The notes beneath the pieces were generated by a model, which worked only from the letters and a program-made list of their open reading frames with translations, ran no database searches and was not told the origin of the DNA. 64,000 nucleotides of DNA, from positions 21,490 to 85,489 of the forward strand of contig CAZIJO010000003.1 of assembly GCA_964539515.1 (NCBI GenBank), written 5' to 3'. Position 1 is the first letter of the stretch. Every line of letters begins with the position of its first letter. Source of the DNA: an uncultured Bifidobacterium sp. (GTDB lineage: Bacteria; Verrucomicrobiota; Verrucomicrobiia; Limisphaerales; JADLHS01). Below, one piece after another: positions 23,122 through 45,463 of this stretch. Position numbers and translations under genes: made by a program.

Positions 23122-23310
23122 ATGAAAACAATCGAAAATTCAGCCAAAACACCAGTGGTGGCGAACCAGGAAACCTGGCTTGAAACGGTGCGTGCCCAAG
23201 TCGCTTCGTTGCGCTTTGGCGTTGTGCAGATTGTTGTTCATGATTCCCAGGTCGTACAGATCGAGCGCACCGAGAAAGTAAGGCTCGACCGTAAACCGTT
23301 GGAAGGGTAA
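23122..23310 (+). CDS. YezD/DUF2292 family small protein
   Basis: SLRFGVVQIVVHDSQVVQIERTEKVRL signature. Confidence 0.9.
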   Translation: MKTIENSAKTPVVANQETWLETVRAQVASLRFGVVQIVVHDSQVVQIERTEKVRLDRKPLEG

Positions 23311-23339
23311 TACCGGTCAGACCACCGAAGGATGATGGA

Positions 23340-25073
23340 ATGAGGAGAATCGCGAAAACAATCCTGTTTGGTTGGAACATGCCAGTCATGGTTTTAGCTG
23401 GCCTGTTGTCACCAGTTGGGGGGAAAGCCCAACCGGTATCTTCGAACACCGTTCCGGCTGCCACGCCCTCCTCCCAAGCGGTCCCTGCTGCCAACGGAGT
23501 TTCTCCGAGCCAGCCAGAACAATCGGAGCTGATCAAAGAACTGCTCGGTCGCTTGGAGCGGCTTGAAAACAAGGAGGCGGAGCAAAAGCAGCGGACCGAA
23601 GCCGCCGAGAAGGCACACCAGGAAGAGGTGCAGAAACTCCTCGGGCGCATCGGTGAACTCGAGGGCAAGGTCGGCTCCCTTGAGTCGGGCAAGGTCCTGC
23701 CCGAGATCGCGGTTTCCCCAAAGGATGGGCCGACAACGCAGGAGCTGGATCAGAAACTTCGGGTGATGGCGCGCAACGAGGAGCTGGCGGCAGAAGCCGC
23801 CGAGGCGCAAGCCGCCGCGCGCGCGAAGGAAACGCCGCGAATCACGGCCGGGGCGAATGGATTCGCCATCAGTTCGGCGGACACGAACTATGTGTTGAAG
23901 CTACGGGGTTTGGTGCAGGTGGATTCGCGTTCCTTTTTTGACGACAATCAATACCTCGAAGGCAATGATGGTTTTTATTTGCGGCGCGCCCGGCCCATTT
24001 TCGAGGGCACGCTCTTTCGTGATTTCGATTTCAATTTGACGCCCGATTTCGGCGGCAACAACGTCCAAATCTTTGATGCCTGGATGAATTACCGTTACCG
24101 GCCCGAGTTGCAGTTGAAGGCCGGAAAGTTCAAGAGCCCGGTCGGATTTGAAATGTTGCAATCCGTCGGCATGCTGCCGTTTAACGAGCGTTCGTTGGTC
24201 AGCAATTTTGTGCCGGCACGAACCCTCGGCCTCCAAATCTGGGGAGACATTGCCGGTGGAGCGGTAAGTTATGCCGCCGGGGTTTTTGATGGCTCCGGGG
24301 ATGCGCGAGTTGCGAGCAACAGCGATATCGATGATGCCAAGGAATTCGCGGGACGGCTTGGGTTTCAACCATTCAAGCAAAGCGCCACCACCATGCTGAC
24401 GGGACTTCGCTTGGGCGCGGGCGGGAGCTTCACCCAGGTGCGTTCCAATACCGCCAGCTTGCCGAACACGACGGGCGGAACTTTGCCCGGTTATGTGACC
24501 TCCGCCTTGCAACAATTCTTTGCCTACAATCCGGCGATCGGGACCGTATATGCCGACGGGGTTCACTGGCGGATTTCCCCCTATGCGGCCTACACCCTGG
24601 GACCATTTGGGCTGTTGGGGGAATACATCGTTGCCCAGCAGGGCGTGGTAAACAGTGTGACCGGGGCGCGCGAGGATTTGTTGGATTCGGCCTGGCAGCT
24701 TTCTGCGCAATGGGTGTTGACGGGTGAAGATGCCTCCTTCACTGGCATCGCGCCGAAGTCGCCATTTGATCCGCGGGCTGGAAAATGGGGAGCCTGGCAG
24801 CTCGTGGCCCGCTTTGCCCAGGCGGATCTTGATTCAGATGCTTTCCCCGTTTTCTCCGATCCCACGCTTTCGGCGCATTCGGCCATGAGTTGGGGAATTG
24901 GGCTGAACTGGTGGCTGAACCGGAATGTCCGGGTGCTTACGAGTTATTCCAGAACCTGGTTTGGCGGCGGGGGCGAGGTGAATCCGGTGTTCATCGGCAC
25001 CCACGTGCCCCCGGCCACGGTTACGCACCAGGACGAAAGCGTATTCATGACCCGGCTCCAGCTTGCGTTTTAA
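23340..25073 (+). CDS. OprO/OprP-family anion-selective porin with N-terminal coiled coil
   Basis: LRGLVQVD, FYLRRARPIFEG, DAWMNYRY, KAGKFKSPVGFE, ERSLV; ends LQLAF (beta-signal Phe). Confidence 0.88.
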   Translation: MRRIAKTILFGWNMPVMVLAGLLSPVGGKAQPVSSNTVPAATPSSQAVPAANGVSPSQPEQSELIKELLGRLERLENKEAEQKQRTEAAEKAHQEEVQKLLGRIGELEGKVGSLESGKVLPEIAVSPKDGPTTQELDQKLRVMARNEELAAEAAEAQAAARAKETPRITAGANGFAISSADTNYVLKLRGLVQVDSRSFFDDNQYLEGNDGFYLRRARPIFEGTLFRDFDFNLTPDFGGNNVQIFDAWMNYRYRPELQLKAGKFKSPVGFEMLQSVGMLPFNERSLVSNFVPARTLGLQIWGDIAGGAVSYAAGVFDGSGDARVASNSDIDDAKEFAGRLGFQPFKQSATTMLTGLRLGAGGSFTQVRSNTASLPNTTGGTLPGYVTSALQQFFAYNPAIGTVYADGVHWRISPYAAYTLGPFGLLGEYIVAQQGVVNSVTGAREDLLDSAWQLSAQWVLTGEDASFTGIAPKSPFDPRAGKWGAWQLVARFAQADLDSDAFPVFSDPTLSAHSAMSWGIGLNWWLNRNVRVLTSYSRTWFGGGGEVNPVFIGTHVPPATVTHQDESVFMTRLQLAF

Positions 25074-25108
25074 GTCCCTGACCTATGAAAGGAATCAATC
25101 AAGTGCAA

Positions 25109-26107
25109 ATGACCAAACTCATCACCCTTTTGGTAGCCGCTTTGGCGGCCTTGGGCTCGGGAGCGGGCGTAAATGCCAAGGACTTCAAGCTCCTCAACGT
25201 CTCCTATGACCCCACGCGCGAGCTCTACACGGAGTACAACGCCGCCTTCGCGAAGTTTTGGAAGGAAAAGACCGGTGACACCGTGAAGATTGATCAATCC
25301 CACGGCGGCTCGGGCAAACAGGCGCGCTCGGTGATGGAAGGACTCTCCGCCGATGTCGTCACCCTCGCGCTGGCTTACGACGTGGACGTCATTGCGGAGA
25401 AGGCGAGACTGTTCCCGGCCACGTGGCAAAAGCGATTGCCCGGCAATAGTGCGCCCTACACCTCGACGATCGTATTCCTGGTGCGCAAAGGGAATCCCAA
25501 AGGCATCAAAGATTGGAACGACCTCGTCAAGCCGGGCGTGGCGATTATTCCGGCCAATCCCAAAACCTCCGGGGCGGCCCGGTGGACGTATCTGGCGGCG
25601 TGGGGCTACGTGTTGAAAAACGGCGGGGACGAGGTGAAGGCGAAAGAATTTGTGGCAAAATTCTACAAGAACGTGCCTGTGCTCGATACCGGCGCGCGGG
25701 GAGCGACCACCACCTTCATCCAGCGCGAAATCGGCGATGTGCTTGTGGGCTGGGAGAACGAGGCGTTCCTTGCGCTCAAGGAATACGGGGCGGACAAATT
25801 CGAAATCGTTGTTCCGTCCGTCAGCATTCTGGCGGAGCCGCCGGTGACGGTCGTGGACAAGGTGGCGAAGAAAAAGGGCACCGAAGCCGTTGCCACGGCA
25901 TATCTCGAATATCTTTACTCGGATGAGGGCCAGGAAATTGCCGGACGGAACTTTTATCGTCCGCGTTCCGAAAAGGCGGCAGCGAAGTACGCCAGCCAAT
26001 TCACCAAGGTCAGTCTGTTCACGATTGATGAAGTGTTCGGTGGCTGGCAGAAGGCGCACAAGGCGCACTTTGCGGACGGCGGCTCCTTTGATCAGATCCA
26101 ACGCTGA
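25109..26107 (+). CDS. sbp: sulfate ABC transporter substrate-binding protein
   Basis: [54 protein letters not shown]-type motif, [11 protein letters not shown]. Confidence 0.95.
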
Positions 26108-26141
26108 ACGCCTCGCGCACCACCGCCAGAGCCCAAAACCC

Positions 26142-27155
26142 ATGAACGTCACCGTTGCCGCAAAACGATTCGCGCTCGGAGCAATGGCCCTTGCTGCGGT
26201 GTCGTTGGCCGCGGCGGCGGAGACGAAGCTCTTGAATGCCTCATTCGACATTTCGCGTGAATTGTTCCAGCGCTACAACGAAGCCTTTGTGCGCCACTGG
26301 CAACAGGCAGGGGGCGCGAGCGTGGCGGTGAATCAGTCGCACGCCGGTTCTTCCAAGCAGGCGCGCGCGGTGATTGATGGCCTGGAGGCCGATGTGGTCA
26401 CTTTCAACCAGGTCACGGATGTGGAAGCGGTGGCCGAGCGTGGTCTGATCGCCCGCGACTGGCGCAAGCTGTTGCCGCATCAAAGTTCGCCTTTCAGCTC
26501 CACGATCGTGTTTCTGGTGCGCCAGGGAAACCCCAAGGGCATCAAGGACTGGAGCGACCTGGTGCAGCCCGGCATCTCGGTGATCGTGCCCAATCCGAAA
26601 ACCTCGGGCAACGGCCGTTACAGTTATTTGGCGGCGTGGGGATACGCGCTGAAGCAATCCGCCGGTGACGAGGCGAAGGCCCGCGAGTTTGTGGGGAAAC
26701 TGTTCGCGAACGTTCCCGTCCTCGACACCGGCGGTCGCGGTGCCACCACGACATTCGCCCAGCGCGAAATCGGCGATGTGCTGCTGACCTTCGAGGCGGA
26801 GGTGTATTTGACGGTGAAGGAATTTGGCGCGGGGAAATTCGAGGCGGTCGTGCCTTCGTGCAGTATTGAGGCCGACATGCCCGTGGCCGTAGTCCAAAAG
26901 GTGGTTGGCAAGCGCGGCACGGAGCAACTCGCACGCGCTTATCTCGAACACCTTTATTCGGACGAAGGGCAGGGGATCATTGCGGCCAATTATTATCGGC
27001 CCCGATCGCAAAAGGTTGCCGGGCAATACGCCGCCCAGTTCGGCAAGCTGGAGTTGTTCTCCGTCGAGAAAGTCTTTGGTGATTGGGCCAGCGCGCAAAA
27101 GACGCATTTCAGCGAGGGCGGCGTGTTCGACCAACTCTACAAAAAATCCAAGTGA
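26142..27155 (+). CDS. cysP: thiosulfate/sulfate ABC transporter substrate-binding protein (CysP-like)
   Basis: SFDISRELF, QSHAGSSKQAR, DVVTFNQVTDV and SGNGRYSYL match CysP rather than Sbp. Confidence 0.85.
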   Translation: MNVTVAAKRFALGAMALAAVSLAAAAETKLLNASFDISRELFQRYNEAFVRHWQQAGGASVAVNQSHAGSSKQARAVIDGLEADVVTFNQVTDVEAVAERGLIARDWRKLLPHQSSPFSSTIVFLVRQGNPKGIKDWSDLVQPGISVIVPNPKTSGNGRYSYLAAWGYALKQSAGDEAKAREFVGKLFANVPVLDTGGRGATTTFAQREIGDVLLTFEAEVYLTVKEFGAGKFEAVVPSCSIEADMPVAVVQKVVGKRGTEQLARAYLEHLYSDEGQGIIAANYYRPRSQKVAGQYAAQFGKLELFSVEKVFGDWASAQKTHFSEGGVFDQLYKKSK

Positions 27156-27157
27156 CC

Positions 27158-27982
27158 ATGAGCACGACCATGATTTCACGCTTCCCGGAAAAGCCGGCGG
27201 CAGCCCGCCTGCGTTCAGCCGGCGACGCCGTTGCGCCATTGGAGGCGCTGGCGGCCAGTTCGCCCAATTTGGTGGCGAATCACGAATTGCGCTTCGATCA
27301 GGCCGGTGAGTCCTATGTGTTGCCGCGTTACACTTATCTCGGGCTCCGCGGGGGCGACCGCCCCATCCGCATCGGCATTTTTGCCGGGATTCATGGCGAT
27401 GAGCCCGAGGGCGTGCGCGCGGCGGTGTTGTTTCTGAAGCTGCTGGAGAGCGTGCCCGAGGTGGCGCGAGGTTACTCCCTCACGGTCTATCCGGTTTGCA
27501 ACCCCACGGGCTACGAGGACAACACTCGCTTGTCACGCCGGGGCAGGGACCTGAACCGTGAATTCTGGACGAACTCGGGCGAGCCAGAGGTGAAACTTCT
27601 CGAAGCCGAGCTGGGCGCGCGTTCATTTGACGGCATCATCTCCCTGCACACGGACGATACCAGCGATGGTTTCTACGGTTATGCGCGGGGCGCCACATTA
27701 ACCAAACACCTGATCGAACCCGCCCTGGCCGCTGCCGAGCGGATTTTGCCGCGTAATGCTCGTGAGACCATCGACGGCTTTCGGGCGCGCAACGGAATCA
27801 TCTTGGAATGCTACCAAGGCGTCCTGAGCGCGCCGGCCAGTGCAAGTCCGCGTCCATTCGAAATCATCCTCGAAACGCCGCAGTCGCCCGCCCCCGAGGT
27901 CAAGGACGCCGCCTTCGTCGCGGCATTGCAAACCATCCTGCTCGAATACCGGAAGTTCATTGCCTACGCGCCCAACATTTGA
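27158..27982 (+). CDS. M14-family Zn metallopeptidase/deacylase (AstE/AspA-like), intact active site
   Basis: IHGDE, NPTG...R...DLNR, SLHTD, ILETP; no signal peptide; ends AYAPNI. Confidence 0.85.
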   Translation: MSTTMISRFPEKPAAARLRSAGDAVAPLEALAASSPNLVANHELRFDQAGESYVLPRYTYLGLRGGDRPIRIGIFAGIHGDEPEGVRAAVLFLKLLESVPEVARGYSLTVYPVCNPTGYEDNTRLSRRGRDLNREFWTNSGEPEVKLLEAELGARSFDGIISLHTDDTSDGFYGYARGATLTKHLIEPALAAAERILPRNARETIDGFRARNGIILECYQGVLSAPASASPRPFEIILETPQSPAPEVKDAAFVAALQTILLEYRKFIAYAPNI

Positions 27983-27992
27983 GCCCGCAACC

Positions 27993-28826
27993 ATGACGCT
28001 CGTGAACTCCAAACGGCACCCGGTCAAAGCGGCGAACGACTCGCGCCAGCCGGACCGGCTGTTGCGCTACTTCGATGCCGTCGCGGAAAAATCCGGCCAC
28101 CTGCTGAGCAAGGCGGTGAAGACGTTCGAGTCCGCTGGCGAACTCTATGGCCTCCCGCGTTTTATTTGGGCCGGGCCAGCGGGTGGTCATGACACGTTTC
28201 GCCTTGGCATTTTCGCCACGTTGAATGGCGATGAGCCGGAGGGCGCGTTTGCCCTGACGCGATTCATCGCGGGATTGGAACAAGCGCCCGAACTGGCGCG
28301 GGGCTATGCTTTCTCGATTTATCCGCTCTGCAACCCCACGGGCTTCGAGGACAACACCCGCCTCTCCCGTGCCGGCGCTGCGTTGAACCGTTTGTTCTGG
28401 ACCGAATCCGACGCGCCCGAAGTCCGCTTTCTCGAATCGGAAATCTGGATGCAGGCGTTTCACGGCATCCTCAACCTGCGCAGTGACGCGGAAACTGCGG
28501 GCGTTTATGGCTTCGCCTCGGGTGGGATCATCTCGCAGGCCTTGCTGCAACCCGCGCTTCAGGCGGCGGGAACCTTTCTCCCGCGCAATCGTCAACGCGA
28601 GATCGACGGCATCCCCGCCCGGCGCGGGATGGTGTATGCGGACATCTACAACGCCGCGCGCGGAGCGTTGCGCGCCGTGCCTGGCCTGGAGAATCCGCCG
28701 TTTGAAATTACCCTGGCCACACCGCGCGCGGCCGCGGTGCATCTGCAAGTCGAGGCGCTGAATGCGGCGTTGCTTGCCATCCTGTCCGAATTCCGCTCAT
28801 TACAGGCCTATGCCCAGAACATTTGA
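27993..28826 (+). CDS. M14-family paralog with degenerate active site
   Basis: Co-linear with paralog 1, but LNGDE (H>N), ALNR (D>A), LRSD (H>R), TLATP (E>A); ends AYAQNI. Confidence 0.82.
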   Translation: MTLVNSKRHPVKAANDSRQPDRLLRYFDAVAEKSGHLLSKAVKTFESAGELYGLPRFIWAGPAGGHDTFRLGIFATLNGDEPEGAFALTRFIAGLEQAPELARGYAFSIYPLCNPTGFEDNTRLSRAGAALNRLFWTESDAPEVRFLESEIWMQAFHGILNLRSDAETAGVYGFASGGIISQALLQPALQAAGTFLPRNRQREIDGIPARRGMVYADIYNAARGALRAVPGLENPPFEITLATPRAAAVHLQVEALNAALLAILSEFRSLQAYAQNI

Positions 28827-28846
28827 ACCACGACCAAGGTGAACCC

Positions 28847-29671
28847 ATGAAAACCACTGCGCTTGCCCCCGCCATCCGTGCCGGATTCAACCTGCGCGAG
28901 CGTCCCACGCTGGCCGATCTGTTGGCGCCCCTGGATCAACTCGCTGCCAAGTCGTCCAATCTGCTTGCCCGGCCCCTTGGGCAGTTTGAGCGCGATGGCC
29001 ACAGTTACGCGATGCCACGCTACATTTTCGTCGGCCCGCAAGGCGGGGATGTGCCGATTCCCGTCGGCATTTTCGCCGGCATCTATGGGGATGAACCGGA
29101 AGGAACACGCGCATTGGTGAAGTTCGCCCAATTGCTCGAAGCGCATCCCGAACTTGCCGCCGGGTATGTCCTGTTCCTCTATCCGGCTTGCAATCCCACC
29201 GGGCTCGCGGCGGGCACGGCGTTTTCCAGCCGCGGCAAGGACCTGAATCTTGAACTTGTGAAGATCTCTCACGAACCCGAGGCGCGCTGGTTGCAAAGTG
29301 AACTCGCGTCGCAACACCTGGAAGGCATCATCAAGCTGCACACCAAGGCCGGGAGCAATACCTTCTACGGGCTGGTTCGGGGCGAGACCCTTGCGCGCCA
29401 ACTGCTGGATCCCGCGCTGGCCGCCGCCGCGGAATTGTTGCCGGTGGCGGAGGACTCAGGCATCGAGGCGTTTCGCGCGCGGGATGTTTCCTACGACCAC
29501 TATGAAGGTGGATCGCCGACGGCGCCAGAAGCTCCGACGCGTCCGTTCGAGGTCATTCTCGAAACGCCCGGGCAGGTTCCGGCTTATCTTCGCGAATGGG
29601 CCTTCGTGCTGGCGCTACGTTCCATTCTGACCGAGTACCGGAAATTCCTCGCCTACGCTCCCAACCTTTGA
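28847..29671 (+). CDS. M14-family paralog, partly degenerate
   Basis: IYGDE (H>Y), DLNL (R>L); LHTK and ILETP retained; ends AYAPNL. Confidence 0.82.
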
Positions 29672-29697
29672 TCCGCCCGAACCAAACCAACATCTCT

Positions 29698-30663
29698 ATG
29701 CCTCGCATCTACAACAACATCACGGAAACGATCGGCAATACGCCGCTCGTGCGCTTGAATCGCACTGCGCAAAACCATGGCGCGGTCGCCGAGGTCCTGC
29801 TCAAACTGGAATTCTTCAATCCGCTGTCCAGCGTGAAGGACCGTATCGGGGTGGCGATGATTGATGACGCCCTGCAAACCGGGAAGATCAACCCGAGCAC
29901 GGTGCTCATCGAACCCACGAGCGGCAACACCGGCATCGCGCTCGCCTTCGTGGCGGCGGCCCGGGGACTGAAGTTGATTCTCACCATGCCCGAAACCATG
30001 AGCCTCGAACGCCGCAAGCTGCTCAAGATTCTTGGCGCAAAATTGGTCCTGACCGAGGGCCCAAAAGGGATGAAAGGCGCCATCGCCAAGGCCGAGGAAT
30101 TGCGCCAGCAGATTCCGAACAGCGTCATTCTTCAGCAGTTCTCCAATCCGTCGAACCCGGCGATTCATCGCAAGACCACGGCGGAGGAAATCTGGCGCGA
30201 CACGGACGGCAAAGTTGACTTTGTTGTCGCGGGTGTTGGAACGGGTGGGACGATCACCGGCGTGGCCGAAGTCATCAAGTCGCGCAAGCCTGCTTTCAAG
30301 GCAATCGCGGTTGAGCCGGTCAAATCGCCGGTCATTTCGGGCGGCCAGCCCGGCCCGCACAAGCTGCAGGGCATCGGCGCGGGTTTCATTCCGGACAATC
30401 TAAACGTGAAGATCGTGGACGAGGTCATCAAGGTGGATGAAGCCGAATCCGGCCCGGTGTCGAAGGAGATCAACCGCCTCGACGGGATTCCCGTTGGCAT
30501 TTCGAGCGGCGCCATTGTTTGGGCGGCGTTGCAAGTGGCAAAGCGCCCGGAGAACTTAGGCAAGCAGATTGTCGCCATCGTGCCGTCCGCCTCGGAACGT
30601 TATCTGTCATCGTGGCTGTTTGCCGACATTGATACGGAGAGCGACAAGCTCGATTTCGTCTAG
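29698..30663 (+). CDS. cysK: cysteine synthase A (O-acetylserine sulfhydrylase)
   Basis: [15 protein letters not shown] (PLP Lys), [41 protein letters not shown]. Confidence 0.96.
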
Positions 30664-30685
30664 CCCGTCACTCATTGATGTTCTC

Positions 30686-30931
30686 ATGACCCGCGCCAAC
30701 AACAACGGCTCCCTTTGGACCCCGCACGCCTGGGCGACCACGCCGGCGGCGGCTGGCTTATGGAACGGCTGGTTGACGGTCGCTGTGGATCTAGTCTGGC
30801 CCACCCCGCCCGGGGAGGTCGTTACAAACTTGAAACCCAAAATTTCAAGAGCTCACCGGACCACCGGAAGTTCTTCGAGGAAGAACAGGAAACCCGGTGA
30901 AGGTCCGCATCCAGTTGCTGCCGGCGAGTAA
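30686..30931 (+). CDS. putative small Trp-rich ORF (81 aa) or structured leader
   Basis: ATG 30686 to TAA 30931, co-directional within the operon gap; five Trp within the first 37 aa; overlaps several hairpins. Confidence 0.35.
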   Translation: MTRANNNGSLWTPHAWATTPAAAGLWNGWLTVAVDLVWPTPPGEVVTNLKPKISRAHRTTGSSSRKNRKPGEGPHPVAAGE

Positions 30932-31062
30932 GCGCTCGCTGATCCTCAGCCTGATTCGTTCCCGCCTTCGGTTGACACCGCTGGCTGCGGTGTCGTCGCG
31001 CCCGTGCGCGGTTGTTTCCCGTGTTTGACCTCATTGAGCACAGAAAACCAAACACAGTGAAA

Positions 31063-38700: not shown

Positions 38701-40025
38701 TCGATGCCGATGGGATTCCGTTGTATCAACCAAACGGTGAACCGGTCACCGTGACGGCGGAATTCGCGAGTGCCGCCGTGCTTCAGCAACTTTACAACAA
38801 CAGCCAGGACGTGCCGCTCAACCCCGACACCGGTTATCGTATCGGCGGCGGTGGCAGATTCACCCTCCGGGCCAACAACCTCGACCTGGGCGCGACGGTT
38901 GGCATCGTGTCCCAGGGCCCGCGCGCCAATGCCCGACTGGCAAACCTTTTCACGGAGGGCGCGGACATCAATGTATTCCTGACCGGCAACCTCGACATGT
39001 TTTCCACCAAGATTGCGTCGCTGAATGGCGGTGAGATCAATGTATATGCGGACGGCCATGTCAGCGTCGGTTCGCGCACCTTCACGACGAGTGGCCAGGC
39101 GGCCCGCGGCATTTTTACGGTGGACGAGAGCGACATCACCGTCATCGCGCGTGGCGACATCAACGTGAACGGCTCGCGCATTGCGGCCTACGACGGCGGC
39201 CATGTGCTGGTGCGGTCGCTGGAAGGGGATGTGGACGCGGGCACGGGCGGGGGAGGCGCGGCGACCGTGGAGAAGATTTACGTGGACCCGGTCACCCGGG
39301 CCATTCAGACTTACGCACCGACGATACCCGGCAGCGGCATTCTGGCGACCACCTTTCCGCCATCGCAGGATTCTGCATTTCCCCGTTCGCTCAACACTGT
39401 GGGGGACATTGTCGTCGAAACGCCCCAAGGCAACATCATCGCGAGTTCGGGCGGCATTGTGCAGATCCCGCTCAACGGCGTGGGCAGCAGCCTCGGCACG
39501 GTCACGCTGCGCGCGGGAACGCAGGATGAGCGCGGCAATGTGATTTATCGCGGCAACATTGACGCGAGCGGTTCGGGCGTCATTGGCAGCACGGTGAAGT
39601 TGGAAGCGAGTGGCGACATCAAGGGGTTGGTCTTTGCGCGGGACAACCTGGACATTGAGGCCAATCAGAGCGTGAACGTAACCGCCCTGGCCGTGGGCAG
39701 CGCCAACGTCAGCGCCGGTGACACCATCTCGGGAACGATCATTGGCGTCGGCAGTGTCAACGCCAGCGGGTCGAGCGTGGATGCGTCGCTGCTGTCCCAG
39801 AACGTGACCGCCAGCGGCGACGTGACTTCTTCGCAGGTTGGCTTTGCCCAGGCCAACGTGGCGGCAACCACCAGCCAGGGTTTGCAGTCGGACGACAGCG
39901 CGAAAGAAGCTGCCGCCGGTGAAAAGCAGGACGAGGAAGACGAGTTGAAGAAGAATCGTCCCGGCCCGCGTATCGCCAAAACCACCGGCCGCGTCACGGT
40001 GATTCTGCCCGAGAAAAAATCCTGA
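35769..40025 (+). CDS. filamentous-haemagglutinin-like exoprotein (TpsA)
   Basis: ANPNG after the signal peptide; TPS domain ILNWQSFNI...NRI...SQIYG.L.ANG.V.LMNQNG; Gly/Ser/Asn-rich beta-helix repeats; starts 1 nt after the tpsB stop. Confidence 0.92.
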   Translation: MKTIEPKNLKDARPHPVPLPRGEGGPISVNESSGRLGCIRRQIIRQGGSHQQTGDVSNGKTRREFLPLLGERAGVRAGVVTNLIRVFSVTVAFLITTNVLANPNGLSVQSGNASVTVNGNQYHITASHNAILNWQSFNIAAGETTRFIQPSASSVVWNRIHDASPSQIYGNLAANGVVVLMNQNGFYFGPNSFVSAAGLIVSTAPFVPAESGGGLFWQFTGPAPGASIINYGQFSVGQGGSAFLIAETIENHGSITAPGGSIGLIAGQEILLSERPDGRGLSASVTLPTGAVNNSGDLIADAGTIALNARVVNQHGLVQANSIRERNGIIELIASDSLTLGQDSIVSASGDSVGVSAGGAIVIKSAGTFADETGSQIEVRGGSLGGDGGFAEVSAPLMDSIESQIDGRAAVGYRGGRLLIDPQDIVIGFSGGTLGSGTVGANDPPVPGTLNLDVNSSFLGFSQIILQATRNITLASGVTWDLVASTGLSEPGSLLKLEAGNNITLSSGASILAGENWSVTLQAGRDFSLADSVIAGTGNILFSGTGSLQAQNGNISLLAGNNLSVGSGHVRTIGGGRISAHAVGGSINTGTKANGFIFVPTGSGYNVSADLGGISTASGGDVSLTAGLDVLSYLPIAGGVQTDAGSGAFGAAPGNVTITAGRDVGGHFVVRNGVGSITAGRNAGLATRLLALSLVSGGWTVNAANDILLQEVRNPNGVFNNLGSSTSPNRHRFDYAANAYTILNGGHSVQLRGTALPRYLDVFSQGIPAIYPGLLEITAGAGGVVLGNDVILFPAPNGNLSIATTDGGSLFGTRAGDLTQLVFSDSGKTQYRAFGDFGIADRSGNLLHLNDPVPVTLDIAGDMDGILLGVPKRAEISIGGNMVNSRFDGQNLRATDETRITVAGNIINRNEFTTVASPQPNFRLFDPLLDLIYPPLTGGAAGVQNQFIYNPTTGELTFQGRMTGEQLQALLNLTVRAFDADGIPLYQPNGEPVTVTAEFASAAVLQQLYNNSQDVPLNPDTGYRIGGGGRFTLRANNLDLGATVGIVSQGPRANARLANLFTEGADINVFLTGNLDMFSTKIASLNGGEINVYADGHVSVGSRTFTTSGQAARGIFTVDESDITVIARGDINVNGSRIAAYDGGHVLVRSLEGDVDAGTGGGGAATVEKIYVDPVTRAIQTYAPTIPGSGILATTFPPSQDSAFPRSLNTVGDIVVETPQGNIIASSGGIVQIPLNGVGSSLGTVTLRAGTQDERGNVIYRGNIDASGSGVIGSTVKLEASGDIKGLVFARDNLDIEANQSVNVTALAVGSANVSAGDTISGTIIGVGSVNASGSSVDASLLSQNVTASGDVTSSQVGFAQANVAATTSQGLQSDDSAKEAAAGEKQDEEDELKKNRPGPRIAKTTGRVTVILPEKKS
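35805..35999. mobile_element. 195-bp MITE/REP-like element inserted in frame in the tpsA 5' end
   Basis: 37-nt inverted units cgccctcaccccgtccctctccctcggggagagggag and its near reverse complement ending ...cggggtaagggcg; length is exactly 65 codons. Confidence 0.8.
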
Positions 40026-40056
40026 GCCACTACCGCAATCCATTTCCAAAACCTCT

Positions 40057-40869
40057 ATGCTAACCGAAACCCTCCTCACTCCCATGTTCGCCTCGGGCGC
40101 GCTCCAGTTCGCGTTCGAAAAAGCCACGCTCGAAGGCAAGCTCACCATCGGCGCGCTCGTCATCGTGTCGCTGTTCAGTTGGTCGGTCATTATTACCAAA
40201 ATCCTCCAACTCTGGCGCGCGAGCCGGGTGTCGAAAAGGTTCTTTGACGCCTATCACGAGACGCGCGACCCGCTGGAGTTGCAGCGCAAGGGGCTGAAGT
40301 TCGATGGCGCGCCGGCTTACGAATTGTACGAGGCCGGGCAAAAGGAACTTCAGTTCCAAATCACGAAACATCCCGTGGTCGTGAAGGGCGAGGCCAGGAT
40401 TACCCAGGCCAGTTTTGATTCGGTGCGGGTCTCACTGGAAGAAGCCGCGATGCACGAGGCGCTCGCGCTGGAGAAGGGGATGATTGTGCTGTCCACGGCC
40501 GTGGCGGGCGGGCCGTTCATTGGTTTGCTCGGCACTGTCTGGGGCGTCATGGAGACTTTCTCCGGCATCGCGAAGGCAAATTCCGCCAGCCTCACTGCTA
40601 TGGCACCCGGTGTCGCGGGCGCGTTGATTGCCACGGTCATTGGCCTGCTGGTCGCGATTCCCGCGATGTTCGCCTACAACTTCATGGTGACGCGGATTCG
40701 CGCGTTCACACAGGAACTGGACGCGTTTGCCATCCGGTTCGCCACGCAGATCGAACACACCTACGTGGACGCGCGGCCCATCGGCGAGGAGGTTTCCGAA
40801 GCCATCACCCGCGCCATTCGCAAGGAGGGCTATGATGCCAACACCGTCATTCAGGCGGCGCATATATGA
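40057..40869 (+). CDS. exbB: MotA/TolQ/ExbB proton channel protein
   Basis: AGGPFIGLLGTVWGVMETF, APGVAGALIATVIGLLVAIPA. Confidence 0.93.
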   Translation: MLTETLLTPMFASGALQFAFEKATLEGKLTIGALVIVSLFSWSVIITKILQLWRASRVSKRFFDAYHETRDPLELQRKGLKFDGAPAYELYEAGQKELQFQITKHPVVVKGEARITQASFDSVRVSLEEAAMHEALALEKGMIVLSTAVAGGPFIGLLGTVWGVMETFSGIAKANSASLTAMAPGVAGALIATVIGLLVAIPAMFAYNFMVTRIRAFTQELDAFAIRFATQIEHTYVDARPIGEEVSEAITRAIRKEGYDANTVIQAAHI

Positions 40870-41279
40870 GAAAGTGCTCCAAGAGCTTGCATCAGTCGCT
40901 GACGGAGCTGAATATCACTCCGTTGCTCGATCTCGCGTTCGTGTTGCTGGTGATTTTCATCATCACCACAACCCCCATTGTGAACGATCTGGATTTGAAC
41001 CTGCCGACGGCATCGAAGAAGCAAAAGGATTCACCGCCCAAAGCGAACTACGTGACGGTGGACGCGGCGGGCACGATTCACCTGAACAAGCAGCAGGTCA
41101 CACTCGAAGGATTGCTCTCGGAACTCATCCAGTTGCGCGTGGACGACCCGGATTTGAGTGTCATTGTCCGCGGTGACAGCAAGACGAAGTACCGGCACAT
41201 CGTGACCGTGATGGATGCCCTGCAACAGGCCAACGTCGTGAAAGTGGATCTGGCCACCGAGCCGAACGGAAAGAACTGA
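40866..41279 (+). CDS. exbD: biopolymer transporter ExbD
   Basis: ELNITPLLDLAFVLLVIFIITTP, IVRGD, VMDAL. Confidence 0.93.
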   Translation: MRKCSKSLHQSLTELNITPLLDLAFVLLVIFIITTTPIVNDLDLNLPTASKKQKDSPPKANYVTVDAAGTIHLNKQQVTLEGLLSELIQLRVDDPDLSVIVRGDSKTKYRHIVTVMDALQQANVVKVDLATEPNGKN

Positions 41280-41283
41280 GCAA

Positions 41284-41967
41284 ATGGCGGATCGTCGAAA
41301 AGAGCAACGCGCGTCGCGATTGAGTGTCGTGATTTCCCTGGGGTTCCACGCCGTCATCATTGGTGGCTTGGTGTTCATCGCGGCCCGCGAGGGTATGCTT
41401 GGCAAGGAACTCAAAAAGATTGCCGTGACGATGGTGCCAAAGGAAAAGCCGCCGGAGGAAAAGCCCAAGGAAAAAGAACCGGAACCCAAGCCGCCCGTGG
41501 AAGAACCAAAACCGGAGCAAACCAAGCCGGTGGAAACCGCGCCCCAAATTGCCAAGCCCACCGCCACACCCCCGCCGGCCGCCTCCGTGGCCGTCCCGGC
41601 CGCCGCTCCCGCGCCGACTGCTTTGCCGGCGTTCGCTTTCGAGGGCGGCAAGCAAGTTGAGACTACGGCCGACCCTGATTTGATCTACAAAGGATTTGTC
41701 GAATACACGCTGCGCTCCCGCTGGAGCCGGCCCGAGGGAATTGATGACGCCAAATTCGTCGCCGAGGTGGAATTGGCGTTAGACAGCTCAGGACGCGTGC
41801 AGGGGACAACCTGGAAGAAAGGTTCCGGAAATTCGGCTTGGGATGCCTCCGTGAGGAGGGTGTTGGCAGCGACGGCCAACATCGGCCGTCCGCCGCCGAA
41901 GGGCTTTCCCGCGCAAGTGCTCGTCCGGTTTGATGTGCAGACCGTTGAGGAGATCGGAATCGAATGA
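41284..41967 (+). CDS. tonB: TonB/TolA-like energy transducer
   Basis: N-terminal TM with SLGFH (SxxxH-type motif), Pro/Lys/Glu-rich spacer, C-terminal W.RP...G.V...SG...WD.SV domain. Confidence 0.85.
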   Translation: MADRRKEQRASRLSVVISLGFHAVIIGGLVFIAAREGMLGKELKKIAVTMVPKEKPPEEKPKEKEPEPKPPVEEPKPEQTKPVETAPQIAKPTATPPPAASVAVPAAAPAPTALPAFAFEGGKQVETTADPDLIYKGFVEYTLRSRWSRPEGIDDAKFVAEVELALDSSGRVQGTTWKKGSGNSAWDASVRRVLAATANIGRPPPKGFPAQVLVRFDVQTVEEIGIE

Positions 41968-42404
41968 AAAAGCGGCGCGCGTTCAGAAAAGTTCACCGTG
42001 AAGGCCACGGCTCGCTGAACGAGTTGAACATCACGCCGCTGCTCGACTTGGTGTTCGTGCTGCTGGTGATTTTCATCATCACGACCCCGCAGTTGACCAA
42101 CAGCCTCGAGATCAATCTGCCCTCCGGCAAACCGCCGCCACCGAAAGCTGACGCGCCCAAGCCGAAGGTCAACCGTATCATCGTGGACGATACCGGGCAG
42201 GCATTCTTTAATCGCGAACCGTTAACGATCCCCGCGCTAAAAACAAAGTTGCAGCAGATGAAAACCGCCGATCCGGAGTTGGGCGTGGTCGTCGAGGGTT
42301 CGGAGGAAGTGGATTATCAAAACATGATCAACGTGCTGGATGTGTTGCAGCAATTGGACATCACCAAGGTTGGGCTTGCGACGGAGGCCGCATCGAATCC
42401 GTAA
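41964..42404 (+). CDS. exbD: second ExbD/TolR
   Basis: ELNITPLLDLVFVLLVIFIITTP, VLDVLQQLDITKVGL. Confidence 0.92.
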   Translation: MKKRRAFRKVHREGHGSLNELNITPLLDLVFVLLVIFIITTPQLTNSLEINLPSGKPPPPKADAPKPKVNRIIVDDTGQAFFNREPLTIPALKTKLQQMKTADPELGVVVEGSEEVDYQNMINVLDVLQQLDITKVGLATEAASNP

Positions 42405-42461
42405 GGAGCTGACTGGTTTCCAGCGCACAGCTTGCGGCCCGCTACATTCTAGGATTGTGCG

Positions 42462-42484
42462 GTAAACAAGTAAAAAGTTAGTCT
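42462..42484 (+). promoter_or_regulatory. possible second Rrf2-type site upstream of cysT
   Basis: GTAAACAAGTAAAAAGTTAGTCT matches the yezD-proximal site TTGACTTAGTAGAGATTAAGTCT at 14/23 positions; AT-rich patch in a GC-rich background. Confidence 0.35.
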
Positions 42485-42499
42485 GTGCGCCGCACTCGG

Positions 42500-43327
42500 A
42501 TGGAACAAAAGAAATTCAATGTCATGCCCGGCTTCGGTCTGACGATGGGCTTTACGCTCTTCTATTTGAGCGCGATTGTGCTCATTCCCATCGGCGCGAT
42601 CGTGCTCAAGACGCTTGGCATTCCGTGGAGCGAGTTCTGGCGGTTGGCGACGACCGACCGGGCGCTGGCAGCCTACAAACTCACCTTCGGAGCCTCGTTG
42701 GTCGCGGCGTTTGCGAACGCCGTTTTCGGCACGTTGCTTGCCTGGGTGCTGACGCGGTACGAATTTCCCGGACGCCGGTTCATCGATGCCATGGTGGATT
42801 TTCCCTTCGCCCTGCCAACCGCGGTGGCGGGGCTGACCCTGGCCAGCCTTTTCGCGGCCAACGGCTGGCTGGGAAAATACCTGGTGCCGTTGGGAGTCAA
42901 GGGCGCTTTCACCCCGCTGGGGGTCATCATTGCGTTGACCTTCGTCGGAATGCCGTTTGTCGTGCGCACGCTCCAACCGGTGATTGAGAACTTCGAACGC
43001 GAGGTCGAGGAATCGGCCGCGACGCTGGGGGCCGGGCGGCTGCGAACGTTTTTGACCGTGATTGCCCCGTCGCTGCTGCCATCCATCATCACGGGTTTCG
43101 CGCTGGCGTTTGCCCGGGCAATTGGCGAATACGGGTCCATCGTTTTTATTTCCAGCCACCACCGGTACGTGGACGAGATTGTTCCGTTCCTGATTGTCGA
43201 ACACCTGGATCAATTCGAGCATGCCGGGGCCATGACGCTGGCGGTGGTGCTATTGATCTTCTCGTTTGCCTTGCTCGGAGTCATCAATGTGCTCGAACAG
43301 TGGGCCAACAAGTTTGTGAAGGGATGA
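42500..43327 (+). CDS. cysT: sulfate ABC transporter permease CysT
   Basis: PGFGLTMG, DAMVDFPFALPTAVAG, PFVVRTLQPV, EESAATLGA, RAIGEYGS. Confidence 0.95.
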   Translation: MEQKKFNVMPGFGLTMGFTLFYLSAIVLIPIGAIVLKTLGIPWSEFWRLATTDRALAAYKLTFGASLVAAFANAVFGTLLAWVLTRYEFPGRRFIDAMVDFPFALPTAVAGLTLASLFAANGWLGKYLVPLGVKGAFTPLGVIIALTFVGMPFVVRTLQPVIENFEREVEESAATLGAGRLRTFLTVIAPSLLPSIITGFALAFARAIGEYGSIVFISSHHRYVDEIVPFLIVEHLDQFEHAGAMTLAVVLLIFSFALLGVINVLEQWANKFVKG

Positions 43328-43427
43328 GCGCTACTTTTCAAAAGGCTGATCTTTGTCTCCCCGCCGGGTTCAAGTCGCCAGTACTTTGCAGAGTAGATCG
43401 TTTGCGGTCGGATTAACGGACGCTTAA

Positions 43428-44363
43428 ATGGCTGGCATTACCAAAAAACAATGGGCCGGAGGGCGCAAGAAATCGCAACGCGGGACGGAAGAATCCCCGT
43501 TTGCGAAATGGACGCTCATTGCCCTGGCGATGCTGTTTTGCCTGGTTTTTCTGCTCCTGCCGCTGATCAACGTGTTTGCGCAGGCGTTTGCCAAAGGTTG
43601 GACGGCTTACTGGTCCGCGCTGACGCATCCGGATTCCTGGTCGGCGATCAAACTCACCCTGCTGGTGGCGGCGATCAGCGTGCCGTTGAATGTGCTGTTC
43701 GGGCTCGCGGCCGCCTGGGCGATTGCCAAGTTCGAGTTTCGCGGCAAGGCGCTGCTCATCACCTTGATCGATCTGCCCTTCTCGGTTTCGCCGGTGGTGG
43801 CGGGCTTGATGTTCATCGTGTTGTTTGGTCTGCAGGGTTTTTTTGGCGAATGGCTGAACGATCATGACTTCAAAGTCATTTTTGCGGTACCCGGGATTGT
43901 GCTGGCGACGGTGTTCATCACCTTCCCGTTCGTGGCCCGGGAGTTGATCCCCGTGATGCAGGCGACCGGCACGGACCAGGAGCAGGCGGCCCTCACCCTG
44001 GGCGCCAACGGCTGGCAGACTTTCTGGCACGTCACGCTGCCGTCCGTAAAGTGGGGGCTGATCTACGGGATTATTTTGTGCAACGCCCGCGCGATGGGCG
44101 AATTCGGCGCCGTGTCGGTGGTGAGCGGTCACATCACCGGGCAGACGGATACAATGCCTTTGCGGGTGGAGAAACTTTACAACGAGTATCAGGGGCCGGC
44201 GGCTTTCGCCGTCGCCAGTCTCCTGGCGATGCTGGCGCTGGTAACATTGGCTATCAAAACCTTCCTGGAATGGAAGCAGCACCGGGAATTTGAACTCGCC
44301 CAGCAGGCGACGCTGGGGGAGACCGGCGACACGGTTTTCCTGGCGCAACCCAAATCTGAATGA
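43428..44363 (+). CDS. cysW: sulfate ABC transporter permease CysW
   Basis: LIDLPFSVSPVVAG, FPFVARELIP, ARAMGEFGAVSVVSG, TMPLRVE. Confidence 0.95.
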   Translation: MAGITKKQWAGGRKKSQRGTEESPFAKWTLIALAMLFCLVFLLLPLINVFAQAFAKGWTAYWSALTHPDSWSAIKLTLLVAAISVPLNVLFGLAAAWAIAKFEFRGKALLITLIDLPFSVSPVVAGLMFIVLFGLQGFFGEWLNDHDFKVIFAVPGIVLATVFITFPFVARELIPVMQATGTDQEQAALTLGANGWQTFWHVTLPSVKWGLIYGIILCNARAMGEFGAVSVVSGHITGQTDTMPLRVEKLYNEYQGPAAFAVASLLAMLALVTLAIKTFLEWKQHREFELAQQATLGETGDTVFLAQPKSE

Positions 44364-45463
44364 GCATCGAACTGAAAGGCGTCACCAAGAAATTCGGCGA
44401 GGTCACCGCCGTGAATGATGTCAATTTCTCCGTCAACGACGGGGAATTGATGGCCTTGCTGGGGCCCAGCGGCGGCGGCAAGACGACGGTGCTGCGGATG
44501 ATTGCGGGCCTCGAAGTGCCGACCGAAGGGGACATCTTCGTCCGGGGCGAGCGGGTGAACGATGTGCCGGTGCAGAAGCGCAACATCGGGTTCGTCTTTC
44601 AGAGTTACGCGCTGTTCAAGAGCATGACGGTGTTCAAAAACATTGCCTTCGGTCTGAAGATAAAAAAGTGGAAGCCGGCGGAGGCCGAGGCCCGGGTGAT
44701 GGAATTATTGCAACTTTTTGGTCTGGCCGGCCTGGAGAATCGTTATCCGCACCAGCTATCCGGCGGGCAGCGGCAACGCGTGGCCATCGCCCGCTCCCTG
44801 GCGCCCAAGCCCGGCGTGCTGTTGCTGGATGAACCGTTTGGCGCCGTGGACGCAAAGATCCGCCAGGAGTTGCGCGAGTGGCTCGTGACCCTGCACCACG
44901 AGCTGAATGTGACTACGATTTTCGTCACGCACGACCAGGAGGAAGCGATGGAAGTTTCGAATCGCATCGTGATTTTCTCGAAGGGAAATCTCGAACAGAT
45001 CGGGACGCCGCGCGAAGTCTATGAACAACCGGCGAACGAATTCGTGGCGCGCTTTGTAGGTGTAATGAACGTCCTCGACACCGAGGTGTCGGGGGGCGTC
45101 GCCCGGATCAATGAAATGGCGTTTCCGGCCGGTGGTCACGCCGACGGCATGCGCCTGCGGATAGGTTTCCGGCCGTACGCGGTGCAGGTTTCCAATGATC
45201 TGGCCCTGCTTCCCTATCGCGCCGTATTGCGGCACACTTTCTTCCTCGGAATCCTGCTACGGCTCGAATTGGAACTGGCCTCCGGCCTGATCATTCGTAG
45301 CCGTATGACAAAGGAAGAATATGCCCAGCTGGGCCTGGTTGACGGTCGGGAGGTGTCGTTTCAAATCAAAAGTTACCGTGTGCTGGCGAGCGAAGATGCC
45401 CGGCTGGCGCCGGAGTTGGAGGCGACGTACCAAGCCCCGCCAACCATCGGCGAGCACATTTGA
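44360..45463 (+). CDS. cysA: sulfate ABC transporter ATP-binding protein CysA
   Basis: GPSGGGKT Walker A, FVFQSYALF, LSGGQRQRVA, LLLDEPFGA, THDQEEA; TOBE-like tail. Confidence 0.95.
   Translation: MSIELKGVTKKFGEVTAVNDVNFSVNDGELMALLGPSGGGKTTVLRMIAGLEVPTEGDIFVRGERVNDVPVQKRNIGFVFQSYALFKSMTVFKNIAFGLKIKKWKPAEAEARVMELLQLFGLAGLENRYPHQLSGGQRQRVAIARSLAPKPGVLLLDEPFGAVDAKIRQELREWLVTLHHELNVTTIFVTHDQEEAMEVSNRIVIFSKGNLEQIGTPREVYEQPANEFVARFVGVMNVLDTEVSGGVARINEMAFPAGGHADGMRLRIGFRPYAVQVSNDLALLPYRAVLRHTFFLGILLRLELELASGLIIRSRMTKEEYAQLGLVDGREVSFQIKSYRVLASEDARLAPELEATYQAPPTIGEHI

Follow-up and report, generated by a model that had tools for sequence, protein, structure and literature searches.

The 64,000-nucleotide stretch of DNA analysed here (hereafter the window; contig CAZIJO010000003.1) carries, at positions 23122 to 45463, a cluster of sulfate-uptake genes that is interrupted by a block of genes for proteins of the cell envelope. 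Among described arrangements, the cysPTWAM genes of Escherichia coli and the oscA-sbp-cysTWA genes of Pseudomonas are the most similar, and Sbp/CysP, CysTWA, CysK and a leading oscA-like gene are present in this cluster too. The genes oscA, sbp and cysA have been named together among those for sulfur homeostasis (PMC10433965). Unlike these systems, the cluster in the window adds a porin, AstE-like genes, a two-partner secretion (TPS) pair, two exported proteins that we call unkA and unkB, a Ton motor and a neighbouring Rrf2 regulator, and its binding-protein and permease genes are split by 15.3 kb and 14 genes. We propose, with a probability of roughly 0.6, that this is a sulfur-starvation locus of Limisphaerales/Pedosphaera-type Verrucomicrobiota, in which the envelope block (unkA, unkB, the TPS pair and the Ton motor) supplies Sbp-CysTWA with sulfate or a related oxyanion that it has captured. 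This block, together with the porin, is a sulfur-specialised version of a wider family of oxyanion-scavenging modules.

Several systems for other nutrients resemble the envelope block in part. In Pseudomonas aeruginosa, the genes PA0690-PA0698 encode an adjacent and co-regulated set of TpsA, TpsB, ExbB2, ExbD2, a TonB homologue and hypothetical proteins with signal peptides (PMC2729926), and PdtA, PA0696 and PA0698 rank with the most strongly induced proteins under phosphate limitation, along with OprO and OprP (PMC9769906). Compared by published gene lists, this Pdt cluster has a similar set of parts and parallels the phosphate-type sister modules that are described below. However, it is linked to phosphate rather than sulfur, its role has been described as virulence-related or unknown, and there is no report of sulfur depletion in it. 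In the HxuCBA system of Haemophilus influenzae, a surface TpsA exposed by its TpsB captures a haem source, and uptake is Ton-dependent (PMC4873976). The TPS domain of HxuA is among the closest solved relatives of that of the TpsA in the window. Unlike the locus studied here, Hxu has a host-protein ligand and a TonB-dependent receptor, HxuC, and lacks a PstS-like binder and a porin; neither in the window nor in the flanks of two related loci (L001 and L003) does a gene for a cognate TonB-dependent receptor accompany the TPS pair.

The capture of phosphate by OprP/OprO and PstS in the Pho regulon offers another parallel, because the locus pairs an OprO/P porin with a PstS-fold binder and one sister module (L063) lies beside PhoU and PstS. 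Here, in contrast, unkB has no Pfam PstS match, its phosphate ligands are replaced, and it is linked to cys genes and coupled to TPS and Ton components. Finally, the production of sulfur-poor proteins during sulfur limitation is an established phenomenon, for which primary references are among those listed in PMC4357790. As in such sulfur-sparing proteins, the products of the locus that are expected to be abundant in sulfur starvation have lost Cys and Met, and this loss is strong and conserved in the lineage. The locus differs in that a whole envelope apparatus is affected, that mature unkA and unkB contain zero sulfur and that sulfur-rich paralogous modules serve as internal controls. Our literature search returned no description of TPS/Ton systems in sulfur acquisition, nor of this module in Verrucomicrobiota. 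An earlier note on this DNA, made from the sequence alone, had known of no described sulfur role for TPS/TonB modules, and by our literature search such a role appears undescribed, with the haem and phosphate systems above as precedents for other nutrients.

The cluster and the elements associated with it are as follows.

22506-22973, minus strand: Rrf2-family transcriptional regulator, divergent from the cluster (Pfam Rrf2, E = 3e-39)
22974-23121, no strand assigned: divergent promoter/operator region (promoter scan and conserved motifs)
23122-23310, plus strand: oscA/yezD-like small protein, DUF2292 (PF10055, 59 bits)
23340-25073, plus strand: OprO/OprP-family porin, 577 aa (PF07396, E = 4.6e-32)
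25085-26107, plus strand: sbp1, sulfate/thiosulfate-binding protein (NF008022, 524 bits, cut-off 288)
26142-27155, plus strand: sbp2 (or cysP-like), second sulfate/thiosulfate-binding protein (TIGR00971, 460 bits; CysP model 396, cut-off 308)
27158-27982, plus strand: AstE/AspA-type (M14-related) zinc hydrolase, cytoplasmic (PF24827, 37.9 bits)
27993-28826, plus strand: degenerate AstE-like paralogue 1 (motif comparison)
28847-29671, plus strand: degenerate AstE-like paralogue 2 (family scan and motif comparison)
29698-30663, plus strand: cysK, O-acetylserine sulfhydrylase A (TIGR01139, 444.5 bits, cut-off 351)
30789-31062, plus strand: conserved leader 5' of unkA (alignments and nhmmer profile)
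31063-32049, plus strand: unkA, exported sulfur-free protein (no Pfam or NCBIfam match; AlphaFold2 model)
32127-33203, plus strand: unkB, exported sulfur-free protein, predicted PstS-fold oxyanion binder (AlphaFold2 and Foldseek)
33270-35768, plus strand: TpsB, Omp85/ShlB-type transporter, 832 aa (PF08479, 141 bits; PF07244; PF03865)
35769-40025, plus strand: TpsA exoprotein, 1,418 aa (PF05860, 86.6 bits; TIGR01901, 65.6 bits)
40057-40869, plus strand: ExbB/TolQ-family proton channel (PF01618, 102 bits)
40866-41279, plus strand: ExbD/TolR-family protein 1 (PF02472, 101 bits)
41284-41967, plus strand: TonB-like protein (PF13103, 43 bits)
41964-42404, plus strand: ExbD/TolR-family protein 2 (PF02472, 96 bits)
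42500-43327, plus strand: cysT, sulfate ABC permease (TIGR02139, 366 bits, cut-off 246); the reading frame is open from GTG 42485
43428-44363, plus strand: cysW, sulfate ABC permease (TIGR02140, 419 bits, cut-off 329)
44360-45463, plus strand: cysA, sulfate ABC ATPase (TIGR00968, 355 bits, cut-off 343)
45471-45497, plus strand: terminator-like hairpin with a T-run, immediately 3' of the cysA stop (consensus match only)

All 19 protein genes between 23122 and 45463 lie on the plus strand and have family or homologue support, which agrees with the earlier note's count of about 20 one-strand genes from yezD to cysA. That note had also placed the sbp/cysP genes some 15 kb from cysTWA, with many overlapping or near-abutting junctions and with cysK, tpsB-tpsA and exbB-exbD-tonB-exbD inside the split. 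Each of these elements was recovered with Pfam and NCBIfam models, the distance from the end of sbp2 to the start of cysT is 15.3 kb, and the junctions include three 4-nt overlaps and an abutting tpsB-tpsA pair. With refined starts, intergenic gaps are no longer than 100 nt throughout the cluster, the sole exception being the 399 nt between cysK and unkA. GC content is even over the region, at 0.56-0.62. The divergent Rrf2 regulator gene belongs to the same unit.

The composition of the encoded proteins sets the cluster apart from the rest of the window. Cys accounts for 9 of the 7,131 residues in its 19 proteins (0.13%), against 151 of 10,952 (1.38%) in the 27 other window ORFs (Fisher p = 5e-23), and Met is likewise reduced (1.16% versus 2.25%; p = 5e-8). 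The inserted block, including ExbB, TonB and TpsB, is depleted in Cys approximately 10-fold. The two secreted proteins that the earlier note had described as free of sulfur, unkA and unkB, indeed lack Cys, and their sole Met is the initiator. This state is conserved in their homologues: Cys is absent from 116 of 117 mature unkB proteins and from 119 of 120 mature unkA proteins, and Met from 112 of 117 and 116 of 120, respectively. A profile search for the unkB superfamily yielded 1,124 cluster representatives, of which 131 full-length representatives at 50% identity were compared for sulfur content. Both representatives of the orthogroup to which the window's unkB belongs are sulfur-free (2/2), as opposed to 2 of the 129 other superfamily members, and the remaining representatives contain 0.4-0.7% Cys and 1.1-1.7% Met. 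Because these paralogues contain sulfur, its absence is not a property of the unkB fold. Paralogous modules (L035, L043 and L063) likewise have unkA, unkB and TpsB proteins of ordinary sulfur content. In the sulfur version of the module, the exported and outer-membrane proteins are nearly Cys-free, and unkA, unkB and TpsB have also lost most Met. We read this pattern as probable selection for expression under sulfur starvation. The sulfur poverty of TpsA had been considered as a diagnostic character and was dropped, since phosphate-type TpsA proteins are sulfur-poor as well.

Another line of evidence concerns the ligand of unkB. Neither unkA nor unkB has a match in Pfam or NCBIfam, and every source-named homologue (236 homologues for unkB, 171 for unkA) is from Verrucomicrobiota. 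The AlphaFold2 model of unkB (pLDDT 86) has as its best Foldseek matches the PstS structures 4exl and 4lat (E ~1e-12; target-normalised TM-score 0.73-0.85), and the family profile weakly matches Streptococcus pneumoniae PstS1 (4exl; E = 0.0034). By sequence family, unkB falls outside PstS as defined by Pfam PBP_like_2 and NCBIfam; on the evidence of the model, it is predicted to have a PstS-like type II periplasmic binding fold. The model of unkA (pLDDT 85) comprises a C-terminal Ig/FN3-like domain, for which Foldseek returned weak Ig-like matches only in the PDB, and an N-terminal domain for which Foldseek found no PDB counterpart.

The canonical phosphate ligands of PstS are Thr10, Ser38, Asp56, Arg135 and Ser139-Gly140-Thr141. 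Paralogues of unkB retain the corresponding PstS motifs G-(S/A)-T-A-F-R, S-G-S, F-S-D-V-F-Q and G-R-x-x-x-S-G-T-R, with the Asp of the third motif present in 28 of 29, and have Thr, Ser, Asp, Arg and Ser-Gly-Thr at the ligand positions. In the sulfur orthogroup the motifs read S-G-A-V-A-F-R, N-G-A, (F/Y)-S-S-V-F-Q and R-D-P-(T/S)-A-G-Q-R in all 30 sequences, and the same positions are occupied by Val, Ala, Ser, Arg and Ala-Gly-Gln, again in 30 of 30. Asp56 of PstS acts as a hydrogen-bond acceptor for protonated phosphate and excludes sulfate, which is fully ionised, and the sulfate-binding site of Sbp has no acidic group. A change from Asp to Ser with the Arg kept is what a shift to a fully ionised oxyanion would be expected to require.

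The arrangement is also retained in related genomes. A scan of one genome per species gave 30 loci, numbered with the prefix L, onto each of which the window proteins were mapped. All are from metagenome-assembled genomes of Verrucomicrobiota (Limisphaerales, Pedosphaera, subdivision 3), apart from a single record that bears the title Bifidobacterium and that we take to be mislabelled. Because the arrangement recurs in 30 genome loci, it is not due to chance. The order porin-unkA-unkB-tpsB-tpsA-exbB-exbD-tonB-exbD holds wherever the contig is long enough, although in the window's own subgroup the porin gene lies further upstream, directly after oscA. The synteny comparison that the earlier note had called for links the TPS/TonB block to sulfur genes in most related loci with sufficient flank, so that the lack of cys linkage which that note had named as counting against its idea was not observed: the core is flanked by oscA, sbp, cysK, cysT or Rrf2 in L001, L006-L008, L011-L015, L017, L019-L023, L025, L027-L032 and L034. 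The full layout of the window is found in L001, L020 and L034. Elsewhere cysT lies 3' of the second exbD gene, exbD2 (L007, L011 and L013), or exbD2 is followed by oscA-sbp (L012) or cysK (L006). Linkage to sulfur genes persists, in these several gene orders, down to about 52% unkB identity.

The transporter genes themselves are ordinary members of their families, and it is their split arrangement that is unusual. Every sulfate ABC subunit (Sbp, CysT, CysW and CysA) exceeds its NCBIfam cut-off, with both sbp products above that of TIGR00971 (494 and 460 versus 155.5 bits). Binding-protein and permease genes are separated in the window and in L007, L011, L013 and L034, and an intact, contiguous sbp-cysTWA set lies upstream of the core in L029. 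The oscA-like product falls below the OscA equivalog cut-off (46 versus 85 bits) and above that of DUF2292 (59 versus 22). No genes for the reduction of sulfate are present in this cluster.

Among these loci, L034 is the closest relative of the window overall (93% identity for rrf2, 92% for cysK and 92% for cysT), and its unkA, unkB and tpsB genes, at 8500-12300, are broken by frameshifts. Because the contig name indicates a nanopore assembly, the frameshifts are probably sequencing errors rather than marks of pseudogenes. The low unkA and unkB identity of L034 had suggested a second 'cassette type', which was withdrawn in view of this frameshift-ridden assembly.

Modules of the same construction occur in other genomic settings. 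The closest sulfur-containing paralogue of unkB, P0363, is found in L035 and L036, where it is preceded by genes for an HTH/PBP_like-domain regulator, a TrmO-like protein and an unkA-like protein and is followed by Porin_O_P, TpsB, TpsA, ExbB, ExbD, TonB and ExbD genes. From the unkA-like protein through ExbD, the proteins of this module are 40-62% identical to those of the window. A metagenome scan with phosphate-type unkB paralogues (alignment A5) gave two informative loci. L043 carries unkA, unkB, TpsB, TpsA, ExbB and ExbD, and L063 carries unkA, unkA, unkB, TpsB, TpsA, ExbB, ExbD, TonB and ExbD adjoining PhoU and PstS, neighbours that fit a phosphate-starvation setting. The complete Limisphaerales chromosome OZ260084.1 (L032) has, in addition to its sulfur-type genes, a second unkA-unkB pair just upstream of oscA (2441-4530). 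This pair is approximately 40% identical to the first, its unkB contains 3 Cys and 6 Met after residue 25, and it shows a third ligand pattern (GAVSLK, FSVVFQ and RDIGAAHR) that is shared with P0363 of L035. The combination of TPS, Ton, binder and porin is thus a recurring module whose binders are of at least three ligand types, and the majority type looks phosphate-specific by its predicted ligands. The shift towards sulfur in unkB, the loss of sulfur from the proteins and the placement in a sulfate operon together set the sulfur version apart from the phosphate-type modules.

The settings of the paralogous pairs vary further. A phosphate-type unkA-unkB pair in L087 (11883-13291) adjoins genes for ArsC-like phosphatases and an MIP channel, phosphate-type pairs in L062 and L071 adjoin an MGDG-synthase-like glycosyltransferase gene with a PHP domain, and L089 has a variant with Porin_5 and an ExbB fusion. 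From gene names only, an arsenate link (ArsC-like, MIP) and a lipid-remodelling role (glycosyltransferase) are suggested. In L063 (1-7650), PhoU is fused to a low-molecular-weight phosphatase domain, and the pair of L043 is at 11396-12447.

From these observations a mechanism can be sketched. Under sulfur limitation, the cell would build an apparatus that is itself cheap in sulfur. At or across the outer membrane, this apparatus would capture sulfate or a comparable fully ionised oxyanion of sulfur, for example thiosulfate. The porin would let the anion through, Sbp/CysP and CysTWA would import it, and CysK would use the sulfur, after its reduction, to build cysteine. More speculatively, TpsA, exported by TpsB, might serve unkA and unkB as a scaffold or antenna on the cell surface, and the Ton motor might power an outer-membrane step, either release or gating, without a classical TonB-dependent receptor. 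The earlier note had proposed that the genes inserted in the split serve sulfur scavenging, and this proposal is strengthened by the linkage to cys genes, the approximately 10-fold Cys depletion, the sulfur-free state that is specific to the unkA and unkB orthogroups and the replaced ligands of unkB.

A number of observations weigh against this proposal. Induction by sulfur limitation is inferred from composition and linkage, and sulfate is a putative ligand of unkB. The assignment of Asp56 relies on the weak profile match (E = 0.0034) and on motif correspondence rather than on superposed coordinates, and because several hydroxyl donors are lost along with this Asp, the ligand of unkB could be other than sulfate. 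In composition, TpsA is sulfur-poor in phosphate-type modules too (0.74-1.15 Cys plus Met per 100 aa, versus 0.56 here), and ExbB is not poor in Met, with 8 in 270 aa. No Plug or TonB_dep_Rec domain was found in the 48 window ORFs scanned or in the 10-kb flanks of L001 and L003, and a receptor could be encoded elsewhere in the genome. The 399-nt gap with its leader and terminator-like hairpin separates the unkA block from the upstream genes; because of that leader and hairpin, the TPS/Ton genes may form a unit of transcription or control of their own. Lastly, the available flanks of the L003/L016 contig and of L033, and only these, contain no sulfur gene.

The last two points would be expected if an unrelated TPS/Ton island had simply been inserted into a cys operon and were used independently of sulfur status, as the leader hairpin before unkA and the gaps of 95-100 nt around cysT allow separate transcription units. 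We consider such hitch-hiking very improbable. Linkage is kept to approximately 52% unkB identity in several gene orders, the Cys depletion extends to ExbB, TonB and TpsB, the sulfur-free state is specific to the orthogroup and there is no island signature, GC content being 0.56-0.62 throughout. A less remote alternative, though still an improbable one, is that the block is a low-sulfur copy of a phosphate-scavenging module, made under sulfur limitation and without any role in sulfur uptake. Swaps to sulfur-poor paralogues are established (again, references are among those listed in PMC4357790), paralogous modules of ordinary sulfur content do exist and the L032 genome has both sulfur-free and sulfur-containing unkA-unkB pairs. 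However, that second pair is of the third ligand type, not the phosphate type. Moreover, a mere isoform would not be expected to show invariant changes at all five phosphate-ligand positions, including Asp to Ser, and it is these changes that argue for a new specificity of unkB. An AstE-like gene, present with most sulfur-type loci, was not detected by tblastn in phosphate-type loci, which also speaks against a phosphate module in sulfur-poor form.

The strongest competitor accepts induction by sulfur starvation and changes the substrate. Sulfur depletion and linkage fit equally well if the apparatus forages for organic sulfur, with TpsA acting as an adhesin or cytolysin on sulfur-rich material and unkA and unkB binding an organosulfate, a sulfonate or a sulfated sugar. 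The TPS domain is nearest to those of the adhesin and binding TpsA proteins HMW1, EtpA and HxuA, unkA ends in an Ig/FN3-like domain, and the loss of hydroxyl ligands for a small anion could make room for a larger one. Even so, we judge this explanation unlikely, if less so than the other two. The cluster and its examined flanks contain no gene for a sulfatase, a sulfonate monooxygenase or desulfonation, and no sulfatase was found among the window ORFs scanned. The sole importer present is the sulfate/thiosulfate ABC transporter, the porin is of the small-anion OprO/P family, and the binders of sister modules have the full set of PstS phosphate ligands, in one case beside PhoU/PstS, which points to small oxyanions. 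In addition, the listed TpsA passengers are about 58-82% identical, unlike those of diversifying adhesins or toxins, and no C-terminal toxin domain was found in the TpsA of the window. Capture of sulfate or a related oxyanion for Sbp-CysTWA remains our preferred reading.

More tentatively, and with somewhat less confidence than even odds, the locus and its sisters may represent an unrecognised class of module. Its parts would be a PstS-fold binder, a partner of new fold, a porin, a TPS pair and an ExbB-ExbD-TonB-ExbD motor that acts without a receptor, in versions for phosphate, for sulfur and for at least one further ligand type. This class may have a relative in the P. aeruginosa Pdt cluster. 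If the proposal is correct, TPS exoproteins and Ton motors would gain a role in the acquisition of mineral anions, beyond the route of porin, binding protein and ABC transporter that is recognised for sulfate, and the phosphate-starvation TPS/ExbBD cluster of P. aeruginosa might be given a physiological rationale. The unkB protein would offer a clean natural case of a specificity switch in the PstS fold, from phosphate-type to sulfur-type, that includes the discriminating Asp. Element sparing would extend to an entire apparatus of many proteins, for which the paralogous modules act as controls. The findings would also be relevant to how Verrucomicrobiota that are abundant in soil and fresh water, yet seldom cultured, manage when sulfate is low.

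The gene for the porin (23340-25073) had been left off the earlier note's gene list. Its product has a Porin_O_P domain (PF07396, 112 bits versus a cut-off of 20.9) preceded by an N-terminal extension of about 150 residues that forms a coiled coil (encoded in 23340-23900, and present in homologues). The coiled coil is followed by a strongly conserved segment, G-R-V-L-P-E-I-A-V-x-x-x-D-G-P-T, and the idea can be raised that the extension might contact the Ton motor. Inspection by eye of the porin extension and of the N-termini of TpsB and unkA revealed no convincing TonB box; the conserved VLPEIAV segment of the porin was seen during this inspection.

The TPS pair has the defining parts of type Vb secretion, a TpsA with a TPS domain and an adjacent TpsB with POTRA and ShlB domains. 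Two POTRA domains and a length of about 580 aa are usual among well-studied TpsB proteins. In the TpsB of the window there are four POTRA-like repeats, of which three belong to the ShlB type (PF08479, 141 bits) and one is generic (PF07244), followed by a ShlB-type barrel (PF03865, 49 bits), and the TpsB proteins of sister modules range from 532 to 952 aa. In TpsA, an N-terminal TPS domain (PF05860, 86.6 versus 33.5 bits; TIGR01901, 65.6 versus 29.1), for which the nearest solved domains are those of HMW1, EtpA and HxuA (E = 1e-29 to 4e-18), leads into a beta-helix-like passenger. A search with this passenger gave 1,066 matches, and most of the 120 cluster representatives listed are 58-82% identical to it over nearly its whole length. 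By this comparison the passenger appears unusually conserved for a TPS exoprotein. A family scan found neither a C-terminal toxin domain nor any other known domain at the C-terminus of TpsA.

All parts of the Ton motor exceed their Pfam gathering thresholds (PF01618, PF02472 twice and PF13103). The equivalog models do not separate Ton from Tol here, with the ExbB-type product below both the TolQ model (147 versus a cut-off of 221) and the ExbB model (116 versus 206), and the ExbD-type products below the cut-offs of both the TolR and the ExbD equivalog models. The TonB-like protein has an N-terminal anchor, a Pro/Glu/Lys-rich linker like that of TonB and a TonB_2 C-terminal domain.

Upstream of cysK lie the genes that the earlier note had listed as three M14 paralogues. 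Three are indeed present, but their best family is AstE_AspA_cat and only the first keeps its zinc-binding and catalytic residues. This first product scores 37.9 bits against PF24827 (cut-off 25) and retains HxxE, NR, the second His and the catalytic Glu, in the motifs GIHGDEPEG, NREFW, LHTDD and LETP. Its nearest solved relatives are REP34 (4oko) and 3b2y. The copy at 27993-28826 has His replaced by Asn, His by Arg and the catalytic Glu by Ala, and the copy at 28847-29671 has His replaced by Tyr and has lost the NR motif, so that zinc ligands are missing from both. Because identical substitutions recur in the orthologues of L001, L010, L020 and L034, the two degenerate copies are conserved pseudoenzymes. 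Most sulfur-type loci for which enough upstream flank is available carry an AstE-like gene, among them the L003 contig, which is otherwise free of sulfur genes. The AstE-like genes are cytoplasmic in their products and stand outside the envelope module; as a guess, the enzyme may deacylate an N-acyl amino acid of cysteine metabolism.

The cluster is probably governed by the divergent Rrf2 regulator under sulfur limitation. This protein can be assigned to the Rrf2 superfamily only, since it falls below the equivalog cut-offs for IscR (87 versus 208 bits) and CymR (84 versus 195 bits). It has four clustered cysteines, C94-x8-C103-x-C105-x5-C111, a spacing unlike the C-x5-C-x5-C of IscR and NsrR. 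By these cysteines, the regulator might bind an Fe-S cluster and so report the sufficiency of cysteine or sulfur. Its gene adjoins the cluster in L001, L012, L013, L019, L020, L022 and L034.

The intergenic region between the Rrf2 gene and oscA contains candidate control elements. A promoter scan detected a promoter-like site, TTGACT-16-TATTCT, 5' of oscA (23069-23096), and the promoter block TTGACWWRGTNNNGWTT is kept in 8 related loci, among them L027, which was outside the derivation set. The 8-mer TAGAGATT occurs four times in the window, against 0.32 expected, and two of these copies form a pair in opposite orientation within this intergenic region (22988-22995, minus strand, and 23078-23085, plus strand); two further, distant copies are at 56906-56913 and 62195-62202. 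Across loci, the 7-mer TAGAGAT is enriched approximately 100-fold 5' of oscA (13 occurrences in 3.1 kb versus 16 in 377 kb), and it is a candidate operator for the Rrf2 regulator. A perfect palindrome, GACTTA-N8-TAAGTC (23071-23090), had been considered as a conserved operator and was dropped in favour of TAGAGAT, since it is absent from all related loci.

The leader 5' of unkA, about 280 nt long, lies within the 399-nt gap that follows cysK, and a search with an nhmmer profile found full copies in 8 distinct loci. It holds an invariant 16-nt core, CTCACCGGACCACCGG (30852-30867), and a small ORF of 33 codons (30830-30931) that has a good ribosome-binding site in seven loci. The reading MKxxIYGSSPDHRRF..KNLKPGE.. 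is common to 7 loci, and the window copy stays open through two compensating frameshifts. Further downstream, a GC hairpin (30996-31011) is followed by TTGTTTCC, which forms a U-rich tail. These features suggest a candidate attenuator, riboregulator or internal control point for the genes from unkA to exbD2. Rfam returned zero family matches for the whole window and the cysK-unkA gap. The predicted fold of the leader is marginally more stable than that of shuffled sequence (z-score -1.85) and covariation is scant, for which reasons a stable RNA structure was set aside and is kept as a candidate only.

Elsewhere in the window, the surroundings of the cluster (56830-60232, minus strand, and 9846-18893, plus strand) include genes for DUF1552, a PSD/PSCyt-domain protein, an Fe-S protein and haem-copper oxidase subunit I. 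Genes of this kind are typical of the Planctomycetes-Verrucomicrobia group.

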